Positions 13,690 to 52,278 of a DNA stretch of 64,000 nucleotides are shown here, in pieces. The position numbers were made by a program, and so were the translations under genes. The stretch's first letter is position 1; every line of letters begins with the position of its first letter. Location of the stretch: the NCBI GenBank assembly GCA_934101275.1, contig CAKOQM010000001.1, positions 5,371 through 69,370 of the forward strand, given 5' to 3'. The stretch comes from an uncultured Bacilli bacterium (lineage in GTDB: Bacteria > Bacillota_I > Bacilli_A > RF39 > UBA660). The notes beneath the pieces were generated by a model. It was given only the letters and a program-made list of their open reading frames with translations. It made no database searches and was not told the DNA's origin.

Positions 13690-13697
13690 AATTGCCT

Positions 13698-13760
13698 CTT
13701 GACGTTCGGGGGGGGGGTATCTGTTATAATCATCATAGGAAGACTATGGTGATTTTTTCT
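13698..13760 (+). promoter_or_regulatory. Promoter cassette with a G10 homopolymer in the -35/-10 spacer, followed by an inverted repeat and a T-run (copy A)
   Basis: TTGACG at 13698-13703; G10 at 13707-13716; extended -10 TGtTATAAT at 13721-13729 (20 nt spacer); inverted repeat atcatcatag/ctatggtgat at 13728-13752 then TTTTTT; a near-identical cassette lies at 51725-51795 on the minus strand. Confidence 0.6.
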
Positions 13761-13897
13761 TGCAAAAAATCACTATTACCCTTCACATTTATAACTAAAT
13801 GGTATTGAAATGTTATAATGTTTTATGTACTAAGTAAAAAGCGTTTAAAACGCACCATACTGTTACATACTAAAAAGAAAAAGGAGTTGTTCCATTT

Positions 13898-15505
13898 ATG
13901 GAAAAAAAGAGAAGAAATATTTTAATTACAATTGTTTTATTAATAGGTATCATCGCTGTTATAGGCGTCTCTTATGCTTTATGGGTATTGAACTTAACTC
14001 AAACTGGTCAAAATGATATTGTTTCATCATGTTTTAATATCACTTATGAAGATAAAGACAATATTAGTTTACAAAAGGCCTACCCAATCTTAGATGAAGA
14101 AGGAAAGAAATTAGTACCATATGAATTCACGATTACCAATTCTTGTGATTCCTATGCTTCTTTTAATGTTAATCTAGAAGTCTTAAATACCACGACTTTA
14201 ACAAACAACGATGCCGTTAAAGCTATGATATCATCAAAAACAAATGATACCGAGACAGAGATAACAACGAGTTTATTATCAAGTTATCAAACAACCACGA
14301 AAACCTTAGATAATGCTAAAATAGCATTTAATTTAACAACAGGCTATTTAAATGTAAAAGAATCTAAAACTTATACCTTAAGATTATGGTTAGACGAAAA
14401 TGTGGATATGAATACCGAAGGTGTTCAAAATGCTAAATTTAGTTCAAAAGTAGTTGTCACAACAAGCTATGCAGAAGAAATACCGAAATCTGCGGTAGAG
14501 ACAATAGTATCATTAGTAAGTGGAGCAGATATTAGTTCAACAGATGTTTATACAGTGCCAGATAAAGAAGGAGATAATTGTACATATACCTTCGTATATG
14601 ATGGAACGAGTGATAACAATTTAAGATATGTCGGATCAAATCCATGTAATTATATAAAAATAGATGATGAGTTATGGCGAATCGTTGGTGTGATGAATAG
14701 CATAGATGATGGCACAGGCAAGAAAGAAAGCCGTATAAAATTAATCCGGTCAGAGTCAATAGGAGGATATTCTTGGGATACATCCGATTCTAGCATAAAT
14801 GGAGGCTATGGTATAAATGAGTGGAGTCAAGCCGATTTAATGAAACTTTTAAATCCAGGGTATGAAAGTGAAAGCGTTGGAGGTTCTTTGTACTACAATG
14901 GTGGTTCAGGCACATGTTATAGTGGTCAAAGTAATACAACATCTTCTTGTGATTTTGCAAGTAGTGGCTTAAAAGAAAATTTAAAAGCATTAATAGGGGA
15001 TGCTATCTGGAATACCGGAAGTAACGATGGTGTCATATATGGGTATGATACAATAACTAGTAAATTCTATGAATTAGAAAGAAGTAATAATACAGGGAAG
15101 ATATGTTCATCAGGAAACTATTGTAATGATACCGTAGAAAGAACGACAACGTGGACAGGAAAAGTAGGATTAATATATCCTTCTGATTATGGATATGCGA
15201 CTAGTGGAAGAAGAGCTGCAAGTCAAAGCAGTTGCTCAAATGAAAAAATGTCTAATTGGATTGCTAGTTCTTATAGTGATTGCAGATCTAATGATTGGAT
15301 ATATAATTCATCTACTCAGTGGACTATTTTTCATTATGCGTTCTCTTCATCTGCTAGTGATGCGATGTATATTAGAGATACTGGAGACGTCAATACCAAC
15401 TATGTGGGTGTTAATAATGGTGTCCGTCCTTCTATTTATTTAAAACCTAATGTTTCTATTTTGTCTGGTGAAGGTACTTTGGAAGATCCCTATGTATTAG
15501 GATAA
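13898..15505 (+). CDS. Secreted/surface protein, paralogous family member A (N-terminal signal-anchor, Ser/Thr-rich, conserved C-terminal module)
   Basis: 535 aa; 'KKRRN' then TM then 'GVSYALW'; 'YTLRLWLDENV' block shared with the 51404 ORF; C-terminal 'GVRPSIYLKPNVSILSGEGTLEDPYVLG'; RBS AAAGGAG. Confidence 0.8.
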   Translation: MEKKRRNILITIVLLIGIIAVIGVSYALWVLNLTQTGQNDIVSSCFNITYEDKDNISLQKAYPILDEEGKKLVPYEFTITNSCDSYASFNVNLEVLNTTTLTNNDAVKAMISSKTNDTETEITTSLLSSYQTTTKTLDNAKIAFNLTTGYLNVKESKTYTLRLWLDENVDMNTEGVQNAKFSSKVVVTTSYAEEIPKSAVETIVSLVSGADISSTDVYTVPDKEGDNCTYTFVYDGTSDNNLRYVGSNPCNYIKIDDELWRIVGVMNSIDDGTGKKESRIKLIRSESIGGYSWDTSDSSINGGYGINEWSQADLMKLLNPGYESESVGGSLYYNGGSGTCYSGQSNTTSSCDFASSGLKENLKALIGDAIWNTGSNDGVIYGYDTITSKFYELERSNNTGKICSSGNYCNDTVERTTTWTGKVGLIYPSDYGYATSGRRAASQSSCSNEKMSNWIASSYSDCRSNDWIYNSSTQWTIFHYAFSSSASDAMYIRDTGDVNTNYVGVNNGVRPSIYLKPNVSILSGEGTLEDPYVLG

Positions 15506-50484: not shown

Positions 50485-51679
50485 TTAAGGCGTTTGAATG
50501 ATATAAGGACTACTTGAAGTACCAATTCCGCCACTTATTTTGGCATCCTCTTTTATATTTATAATAGCTGTGATAAGTCCAATAGAATATTTTAGAGCTT
50601 TATTTCCTTTTTTACTTGTCGTCACAGTAAAACGATCATTTTCATTAGGACATGTTAATATAGGCGATATCTTCCATTTGATATAAGCCTTTATCAGATT
50701 TATCACTTTCTTCTTCTGTTTGATTAGCACATAGCCACTTAAAGTGTATTTTCTCGTTTTTATAGATGTGCCACCAAATCTGGTTGCAGTACATCTGTAA
50801 AACTTGCTTTTGAAAGCTCATATACAGATACACAATTTGAAGTTGCTTTCCAAATGGTGACAATGTCTTGACAACTTGTTGCATAACCTGCATTACAAAA
50901 ATAATACTTGGCATTTGTATAATCTAATGTTGTCAGATCTAATTGTTCTACATTCGTTAAGACATATTTACCTGTCTCACTATTATTAAAGGTATAGCCG
51001 GTTCCAATAGGAAGTAAGACATAAGAAGAACTTAAATTTTTAAATCTCTCATCATTATCTTTTAAGGCTACTAAGTCAGGATGAGGCATCGTAATAGATA
51101 CATTAGATGTTGTACTCGATTTACTTTCATTCCATATTAAGATACTGATGGTTACTTTGGATAAAAACATTGTGTTCATAGCATCTGTGTCTTCTGCTGT
51201 TACATTTTCATCCATCCATAATCTTAAAGTGTAATCGGAACTGTCTTCCGTTCCTAAAGTACCTTTTAATAAAATTTTAGAGGTGGTTACATTATCTAAA
51301 ATTACTTCTGTACTTTCTAAATCCTTTAAATTTGTCATAGCTTCATTATTTACCATAGCTTTTATGTATTTATAAGGCATAGTTATCTCTTTTAATATTT
51401 CCAAGTTAATAGTGTAACTTAAAAATAAATCACAGGTATTTGTTATAGTAAAGCTATAAGGAGTTAGCTTTTTTCCTTCTTCATCACTTATTGGATAAGC
51501 TTTTTCTAAATTAATATCATTTTTTCATTTGTTAAAGACAAACTTAGACAGCTCGTTACTAACTTATTTGGATTATTCTGCGAAAATGTTAAAAACAAAT
51601 AGGCATAAGAGATGCCTATGACACAAACTATTAATAATCCTATTCCGAGTAACAATACTATTTTTTCCTTTTTATTCAT
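50485..51679 (-). pseudogene. Decayed paralog of the 13898 surface-protein gene: frameshift at an A6 tract plus downstream stop and frame break
   Basis: N-terminal ORF (ATG 51679) 'MNKKEKIVLLLGIGLLIVCVIGISYAYLFLTFSQNNPNKLVTSCLSLSLTNEK' stops just after the run gaaaaaatgat; one extra A would fuse it to 'NDINLEKAYPISDEEGKKLTPYSFTITNTCD...YTLRLWMDENV...' (ORF 50760-51404); the 50485-50730 ORF ends 'ISGGIGTSSSPYIIQTP', like the 13898 C-terminus 'LSGEGTLEDPYVLG'. Confidence 0.65.
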
Positions 51680-51724
51680 TTGAAACAGACTTCTTTATTT
51701 CTAGTAAAAGTAAAGCCAAGTAAT

Positions 51725-51795
51725 TTTTACGCACAAAAAATCACCATAGACTTCCTATGATGATTATAAAAGAACCCCCCCTCCCCGAACGCCAA
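51725..51795 (-). promoter_or_regulatory. Promoter cassette, copy B: G4-A-G7 tract in a 21-nt -35/-10 spacer, then an inverted repeat and a T-run
   Basis: Minus strand: TTGGCG (51795-51790), ggggaggggggg (51786-51775), TATAAT (51768-51763), inverted repeat atcatcatag/ctatggtgat, then tttttt; about 85% identical to 13698-13770. Confidence 0.6.
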
Positions 51796-52089
51796 GGGGA
51801 TTTTGGAAAAAGTTGCTATTAGTAACTTTCTGTATGATTTTATGTTGTATAAAAATAACGGGTATTTTAATATATTTTTCTTTGTAACAATTTCATAACC
51901 GTTTTCTGATCCGAGGTCCATTTATTGCATGTACTAGCCTGTTCATCACATAAACCTCCACAGCAAAAACTATTACAATTTGAACAAGTATGTTTAATAC
52001 TATTAGCAAGTTTATTAGCCATAAGTGTACAAAGGCATAAGTAAATTAAATCCTCATCATATGTCTTTTTAGAACCCAATTTTTTTTAA

Positions 52090-52278
52090 TTATTTTTCAT
52101 TTTCTTCATTTTTAATAATTATCCCATTTTTAATGGTAAAGTATTTTTTGAAAGACGCCCTTTTAATTTCAACTTTAAAGCTTTTTTCACTAAGTTTTTT
52201 AACAATAACTTTGATAACGAAATCTAGTTTTTCTTTTGTAACAAAATTTTCTTGAAATCTTTTTTTCTTTGCTTCCAT
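52090..52278 (-). CDS. Hypothetical small protein
   Basis: 62 aa, Lys-rich, upstream of and co-directional with holA. Confidence 0.3.
   Translation of the reverse strand: MEAKKKRFQENFVTKEKLDFVIKVIVKKLSEKSFKVEIKRASFKKYFTIKNGIIIKNEENEK

Follow-up and report, generated by a model that had tools for sequence, protein, structure and literature searches.

An A-tract frameshift in an uncultured gut Bacilli genome is very probably one fixed lesion of a decaying gene from a putative membrane-anchored protein family

The window analysed here, a 64-kb stretch (29.7% G+C) from an uncultured gut Bacilli genome, carries on its minus strand, downstream of holA, the remnant of a gene spread over three reading frames. 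The sporulation genes SpoVAC, SpoVAD, and SpoVAEB adjoin holA, and two small ORFs (51867-52079 and 52090-52278, both on the minus strand) lie between holA and the remnant. One of these encodes a Cys-rich product of 70 aa (..HTCSNCNSFCCGGLCDEQASTCNKW..) and has a called 70-aa counterpart in the same place on a syntenic contig, L004; the other, of 62 aa and Lys-rich, is called in contigs identical to the window; neither matches a family in Pfam or NCBIfam. The layout of the remnant is based on tblastn and on alignment to the intact protein of contig L011 and to the protein P0004, and the calls of the four window-specific lesions past the A tract rest on a base-level alignment of the window copy to its syntenic orthologue L004, a Logan assembly of SRR31305015 that encodes P0004. 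The remnant, its upstream element, and the intact paralogue used as a reference within the window comprise the following features.

50485..51679, minus strand: whole pseudogene remnant, about 399 codons in three reading frames with four frame changes
51506..51679, minus strand: fragment 1, the N-terminal membrane anchor (MNKKEKIVLLLGIGLLIVCVIGISYAYLF...), a 57-aa ORF
51520..51525, minus strand: A6 run (T6 on the plus strand), one base short of the A7 (GAA AAA AAT) that intact homologues carry, through a 1-bp deletion
50760..51519, minus strand: fragment 2, the N-terminal beta-sandwich domain and linker, in the frame entered past the A tract
51143..51144, minus strand: junction of an in-frame 49-aa deletion (VTIS joined to ILIWNE), also in L004
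50791..50793, minus strand: 1-bp deletion of one G at 50792 (GAT GGT to GATGT) relative to L004, the second frame change
50723..50724, minus strand: 1-bp deletion of one C (CTA ACT CAA to CTAATCAA) relative to L004, the third frame change
50668..50669, minus strand: junction of a 155-nt frame-shifting deletion relative to L004
50569..50570, minus strand: junction at which 192 nt (64 codons, in frame) have been deleted relative to L004
50485..50730, minus strand: fragment 3, C-terminal remnants with the original stop codon, an 81-aa ORF
51719..51785, minus strand: conserved 67-nt 5' element of the pseudogene, 84% identical to 13708-13774
13708..13774, plus strand: 5' element of the intact paralogue, with an uninterrupted G10 (13708-13717) and a 20-nt spacer
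13898..15505, plus strand: intact paralogue of 535 aa, the reference within the window

Fragment 1 runs on the minus strand from the ATG at 51679 to the TAG at 51506-51508 and encodes 57 aa (MNKKEK...SLTNEKMILI; in full MNKKEKIVLLLGIGLLIVCVIGISYAYLFLTFSQNNPNKLVTSCLSLSLTNEKMILI, then stop), its final codons overlapping the A6 run, and it is called as a separate gene in the public assembly. The frame past the A tract reads NDINLEKAYPISDEEGKKLTPYSFTITNTCD... and terminates at the TAA at 50760-50762; fragment 2, which occupies it, reads NDINLEKAYPISDEEGKK...SFTD and then continues into an out-of-frame tail, VLQPDLVAHL, before the stop. Addition of one A to the A6 run gives ...TNEKNDINLEKAYPISDEEGKKLTPYSFTITNTCD..., joined to the frame that terminates at this TAA, and the repaired product (A7) has 306 aa. 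In BLASTP, this product aligns with the paralogue encoded at 13898-15505 across the junction (41% identity, 193 columns, E 3e-38). When an intact 662-aa homologue is used as the tblastn query, the frame changes exactly at the tract, with residues 1-53 matching before the change and residues 53-345 after it; over the whole remnant, segments of the window match L011 residues 1-53, 53-345, 347-374, 357-387, 513-570, and 634-661, in alternating frames. The tract site reads A7 in L005, L006, L011, and L013 (AATGAAAAAAATGA, in the context AAT GAA AAA AAT GAC) and GAG AAA AAT in L012, and since intact homologues carry A7, the A6 of the window is a 1-bp deletion. The tract is not distinctive as such, as the window contains 338 A or T runs of at least 6 bases. 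The original prediction was thus accurate on the ORF that starts at 51679 and stops just past the A6, in coordinates as in frames, on the A7 that would open the frame into the downstream ORF, and on collinearity straight across the junction with the protein encoded from 13898. It had also placed one further break downstream of the tract; such a break is real, but the count was too low, as the frame changes three times past the tract and not once.

Five disabling lesions are found in the window copy, namely three 1-bp deletions, the 155-nt deletion, and the 192-nt deletion, and a sixth lesion, the 49-aa deletion, is common to the window copy and L004. The four frame changes occur at the A tract, at the two further 1-bp deletions, and at the 155-nt deletion. 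The 49 residues missing at 51144/51143 are present in P0002, P0003, P0005, and L011, and compared with L004 the window copy has also gained 3 nt near 50986-50988. The 155-nt deletion takes out DDGMSYYYRGSV..WRIIRINGDG..YQTK and the 192-nt deletion takes out VDELMLYG...YDVRA of the C-terminal domain, of which only KGLYQMED, KYSIGLIT, and AIINIK..GGIGTSSSPYII survive; the content of fragment 3 is SPILTCPNENDRF...KYSIGLIT/AIINIK...GGIGTSSSPYIIQTP.

The orthologue in L004, which is syntenic with the window (holA and the same small ORF upstream) and 96% identical at the nucleotide level, is free of the four lesions that the window copy carries at 50792, at 50724/50723, and in the 155-nt and 192-nt deletions. 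It has disabling lesions of its own, which are absent from the window copy at those sites: a 96-nt deletion (window 51504/51505-51600) that takes out the A-tract site and is followed by an immediate TAA, the N-terminus being out of frame, and the loss of one T from a T5 run (T5 to T4). L004 is also without about 95 aa, in frame, after WRIIRINGDG, a deletion that the window copy likewise does not have at that site. Within the signal-anchor coding region of the window copy (51599-51619, minus strand) lies a hairpin resembling a terminator (ATAGGCATCTCTTATGCCTAT, then a T-rich run), and the 96-nt deletion of L004 begins exactly at the 3' arm of this hairpin. Different lesions in two sister lineages on top of shared deletions are the signature of a constraint lost before the lineages diverged. 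Over 237 in-frame codons, dN/dS between the window copy and L004 is 0.69 (16 nonsynonymous and 6 synonymous changes; Nei-Gojobori) compared with 0.16 (8 nonsynonymous, 12 synonymous) for the adjacent holA of the same genome pair, a contrast that has the expected direction at small counts (Fisher p = 0.06). The surviving N-terminal domain appears to evolve nearly neutrally, and at these counts the two ratios do not indicate purifying selection on the rest of the gene.

In the metagenome scan, an intact homologue was found in L011 (3983-5971), where one uninterrupted ORF encodes 662 aa counted from the ATG, from which the intact gene would be expected to encode about 660 aa; the intact gene of some 400 aa anticipated by the original prediction is an underestimate. 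A search of 5.8 billion protein clusters returned 106 homologues with E <= 1e-3, almost all of them unnamed and with no Pfam assignments that explain them. The nearest, P0001, is a 206-aa fragment called from this same locus; P0004 (413 aa) is 91% identical, and P0002, P0003, and P0005 (about 410-420 aa) match 92-97% of the length of the repaired 306-aa product at 60%, 60%, and 51% identity, respectively. The fragments of the window copy are collinear with the intact homologues, which are single ORFs. Neither Pfam nor NCBIfam gave a significant match for the paralogue, the fragments, P0003, P0004, or the two small upstream ORFs, Rfam gave none for the whole window, and a sequence search of the PDB with the family profile gave none either.

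The N-terminal half of the family is present in the remnant, with the hydrophobic anchor, G-x-S-Y-A-x-W, and the beta-sandwich (FTITN.CD ... YxLRLWxDEN), S25, Y26, C45, Y62, P63, and W164 being invariant in family alignment A2; the complete C-terminal domain, GLYxMEDDDGxSYYYRG...YWRIIRINGDG...IGLITVDE...YWTLSP...VRAVINL...GGIGTxxSPY, is not. An AlphaFold2 model of the paralogue at 13898-15505 (mean pLDDT 84) comprises an N-terminal helix, which is predicted to act as a membrane anchor, a beta-sandwich at about residues 45-192, and a larger mixed domain. Its best Foldseek match in the PDB is the IgA peptidase of Thomasclavelia ramosa (9qa6, E 4e-8) with 331 aligned columns at a TM of 0.27, the aligned residues not being reported by Foldseek, and weak matches to beta-sandwich proteins include the bundling pilin of Pyrobaculum calidifontis (7ueg). 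At its N-terminus, this peptidase has a non-catalytic domain that is written 'CLTD' (PMC12237041), read here as C-type-lectin-like. On this basis, we infer that the C-terminal domain of the family may be lectin-like. The anchor of the family ends in a strongly conserved G-(V/I)-S-Y-A-x-W motif (window 13898-13990, alignment A2; S25 and Y26 invariant), which we take to resemble the SipW-type (TasA/camelysin-like) signal peptide motif, and the 7ueg bundling pilin is described as TasA-like. Judged by sequence, the family probably consists of unannotated membrane-anchored extracellular proteins of 535-662 aa from uncultured gut Bacilli, the related genomes being Hadza and other gut MAGs.

The 662-aa and 535-aa types stand in tandem in L011 (3944-5971 and 6040-7647), downstream of rpoC and a 177-aa gene, unlike in the window, where the two types are 36 kb apart on opposite strands. 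A 60%-identical homologue of another species, in L005 and, as the same allele, in L006, is split into 410 and 203 aa by a TGA (L005 4678-4686), which replaces the Trp (TGG) of the conserved YWRIIRINGDG. Translation of this TGA as Trp (code 4) was considered for L005 and ruled out: under table 11 the co-resident rpoC stays open over 882 codons and uses TGG for its Trp residues, and because rpoC on the L005 contig is normal under this table, the TGA of L005/L006 is a nonsense mutation. It appears to mark another, independently inactivated member of the family.

The A6 allele is present in all three contigs that carry the locus (70,334 and 77,912 nt; NCBI and ENA), which possibly share reads and are then not independent, and the 57-, 206-, and 81-aa fragments are each present on the same three contigs. 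The A6 and the other lesions thus recur from one deposited assembly to another, with the same proviso of shared reads. No A7 allele of the locus was found in the three contigs or in the protein-cluster search, the 5.8 billion clusters containing no near-identical protein that spans the junction. Contigs L002 and L003, from two other samples, are 100% identical to the window through holA and end at window positions 51837 and 51701, before the tract. None of the three related species found by querying genome contigs with holA has an intact orthologue in syntenic position: holA is followed by unrelated genes in two of them (L009, L010) and by IS remnants in the third. The latter, in L008 (7150-8150), are IS3-family-like transposase remnants in fragmented ORFs between holA and a poly-G element. 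A rearrangement hotspot appears to lie downstream of holA. The proposed comparison with related strains gave no intact gene in syntenic position; the intact homologue of 662 aa is that of L011, another gut MAG.

The poly-G element just mentioned belongs to a 5' element that also precedes the pseudogene, where it consists, in order, of TTGGCG, ttc, an interrupted G tract, ttcttt, TATAAT, a terminator-like hairpin (51739-51765), and T6. The hexamer TTGGCG is -35-like and the G tract, GGGGAGGGGGGG (51775-51786), is G4AG7, with the interruption by A also found in L004. In the intact paralogue, the element reads TTGACG-ttc-G10-tatctgt-TATAAT, followed by a terminator-like hairpin (AATCATCATAGG/CTATGGTGATT) and a T run, and another extended -10-like site lies downstream. 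The copy in L008 (8225-8290), from a species with 74% holA identity to the window, reads TTGACA-gtc-G10-tatctgt-TATAAT and is located about 30 nt before the ATG of a different membrane-protein ORF. G10 is the sole G run longer than 7 in the window, and its length is identical in samples L018 and L019 and in the L008 species. The portable element, TTGAC(G/A)-N3-G10-N7-TATAAT plus a hairpin, heads putative surface-protein genes (window 13690-13760, plus strand, and 51735-51800, minus strand, besides the copy in L008) and may be either a promoter switch based on poly-G or a structured element akin to a terminator. The repeat upstream of the pseudogene has degenerated as well. The short-read contigs L002 (at window position 51837), L003 (51701), and L020 (which starts at 13827), all from other samples, break within about 100 nt of both copies of the poly-G/hairpin. 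At k=141, an assembly should run through a 67-nt repeat of 84% identity, and the breaks may instead reflect loss of coverage or heterogeneity in G-tract length. It is conceivable, though unlikely, that the remnant is the relic of a larger, undescribed contingency system of uncultured gut Bacilli made up of the membrane-anchored family, a poly-G promoter-spacer cassette, an A7 translational switch, and a G-to-A lock of the OFF state; the copy would then have been caught OFF and subsequently eroded, its G tract 'locked' by the G-to-A change. The poly-G 5' element of the family is the only nearby feature that merits further attention, and it constitutes a separate finding.

The segment 50485-51679 on the minus strand very probably represents a dead gene for an extracellular, membrane-anchored protein that continues to erode, the A6 being a fixed lesion and not a switch. 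With five lesions and the 49-aa deletion in place, the protein of about 660 aa cannot be recovered by any alteration of the A run, and the frameshift is therefore a fixed pseudogene lesion rather than a reversible switch. A change of the tract by one unit, to A7, opens 306 codons that end at 50760 and gives no full-length ORF. The disabling lesions are multiple and independent, and the orthologue of the sister lineage carries different ones. Pseudogenisation, with the locus OFF and decaying, had been one of two outcomes proposed for the frameshift and is borne out by the multiple lesions, the decay in the sister lineage, and the A6 in 3 of 3 contigs. The other, a second layer of translational phase variation, is not supported, as A7 gives a stump of at most 306 aa, four lesions lie downstream, and L004 has no tract. 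An ancestral A7 (GAA AAA AAT) lost one A, most likely by replication slippage, and the resulting A6 truncates translation after 57 codons; the copy also carries the further 1-bp, 155-nt, and 192-nt deletions and the shared 49-aa deletion, and expression of the locus would have been lost. The slip in the A tract may have come before the other lesions or only later. By analogy with known switches, it is possible that the ancestral A7 could have worked as a switch in an intact ancestor, with the slip to A6 as the first inactivating event.

Several other explanations for the A6 bear weighing against pseudogene decay. As in vaa and inlA (PMC524362, PMC2831843), the tract lies near the start of a gene for a surface protein, at its 5' end, A7 opens 306 codons that cover the whole N-terminal domain, and the AlphaFold2 model of the paralogue shows this domain as a separate beta-sandwich (residues ~45-192), all of which would suit a live slipped-strand translational switch between A6 and A7 for a shortened, functional protein of about 306 aa composed of anchor and beta-sandwich. 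Such a switch is nonetheless very improbable: the 306-aa product ends in 10 out-of-frame residues and is without the conserved C-terminal domain, L004 has lost both tract and N-terminus, the dN/dS of 0.69 applies to exactly the N-terminal domain, no A7 allele was seen in the three contigs or the 5.8 billion protein clusters, an A breaks up the upstream G tract, the ATG at 51679 is not preceded by a Shine-Dalgarno-like sequence to match the AGGAG of the paralogue, and A or T runs of at least 6 bases are ubiquitous in the window. A6/A7 cannot be called too short for a switch, as switches of similar tract length are documented (PMC524362, PMC2831843). That a true A7 was turned into A6 by an error in homopolymer sequencing or in assembly is highly unlikely, even though homopolymer miscalls occur on some platforms; the same allele stands in three contigs (70,334 and 77,912 nt; ENA and NCBI), and the gene would still be broken by four lesions, two of which are large deletions and impossible as homopolymer errors. 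A run of A6 or A7 is, moreover, short for such errors in short-read assemblies.

That the remnant serves as a silent donor cassette for expressed paralogues by recombination, an archive of the pilS/MgPa type, is extremely improbable. It does belong to a multi-copy family of putative surface proteins, and it has the 67-nt 5' element and a 33-nt stretch (85%) in common with the paralogue at 13898-15505; however, the amino acid identity to this paralogue is only 41% and does not extend past the first 190 residues, which leaves gene conversion without long stretches of identity to act on, and the lesions are random in kind, differ between the sister lineages, and go along with near-neutral evolution. 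A-rich runs can support polymerase slippage (PMC2831843), and programmed slippage at the A run, during either translation or transcription, might be invoked to restore the frame, but the homologues are single ORFs with A7 (or GAG AAA AAT) and the two-frame architecture is unconserved, which excludes programmed frameshifting and leaves this explanation a negligible probability. The downstream lesions would remain in any case. The A6 is also shorter than the long poly-A tracts known to support slippage.

With pseudogene decay as the preferred reading, the called ORFs of 57, 206, and 81 aa are to be regarded as fragments of one pseudogene, and neither as genes nor as a phase-variable locus. The protein family has been lost repeatedly, through independent lesions in two sister lineages and a TGG-to-TGA change in a third (L005/L006). 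This repeated loss fits dispensable, host-facing surface proteins.

Among known systems, the tract invites comparison with translational switches based on poly-A. The vaa adhesin gene of M. hominis is ON with A8 and OFF with A7 or A9, its tract switching at a rate of 1e-3 to 1e-4 (Zhang and Wise 1997, via PMC524362). In L. monocytogenes inlA, a 5' poly(A) tract frameshifts repeatedly by slippage, which results in reversible gene inactivation, and poly-A frame rescue in endosymbionts is mentioned in the same source (PMC2831843). With A6/A7, the tract of the window stands at the short end of the documented switches (vaa A7-A9, PMC524362; inlA 5' poly(A), PMC2831843). Like vaa, the remnant has a short poly-A near the 5' end of a surface-protein gene in a low-G+C bacterium, and a change of one base puts the gene out of frame; unlike vaa, which is otherwise intact and has a toggling tract, it carries four further lesions and shows no length polymorphism in three contigs. 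As in inlA, a frameshift in a 5' poly(A) truncates a surface protein early, whereas the frameshift in inlA is the sole lesion and reversible, and the remnant is multiply disrupted and partly deleted.

Phase variation through homopolymers in promoter spacers is represented by the poly-A of M. hyorhinis vlp and the poly-G/C of N. meningitidis porA and opc. The 5' element of the family, the first layer implied by the 'second layer' of the original prediction, resembles these switches in having G10 between TTGAC(G/A) and TATAAT. It differs from them in that all copies seen have a spacer of 20-21 nt and G10 is constant in two samples and a second species, in that its TATAAT overlaps the terminator-like hairpin, and, for the pseudogene, in the interruption of the G tract (G4AG7). 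With ordinary bacterial pseudogene decay, in which small homopolymer indels are followed by deletions, the remnant shares several independent lesions, a deletion bias, lineage-specific lesions, a dN/dS rising towards 1, and a decaying upstream regulatory repeat; no substantive difference separates the two, and it is to the class of ordinary bacterial pseudogene decay that the remnant belongs.
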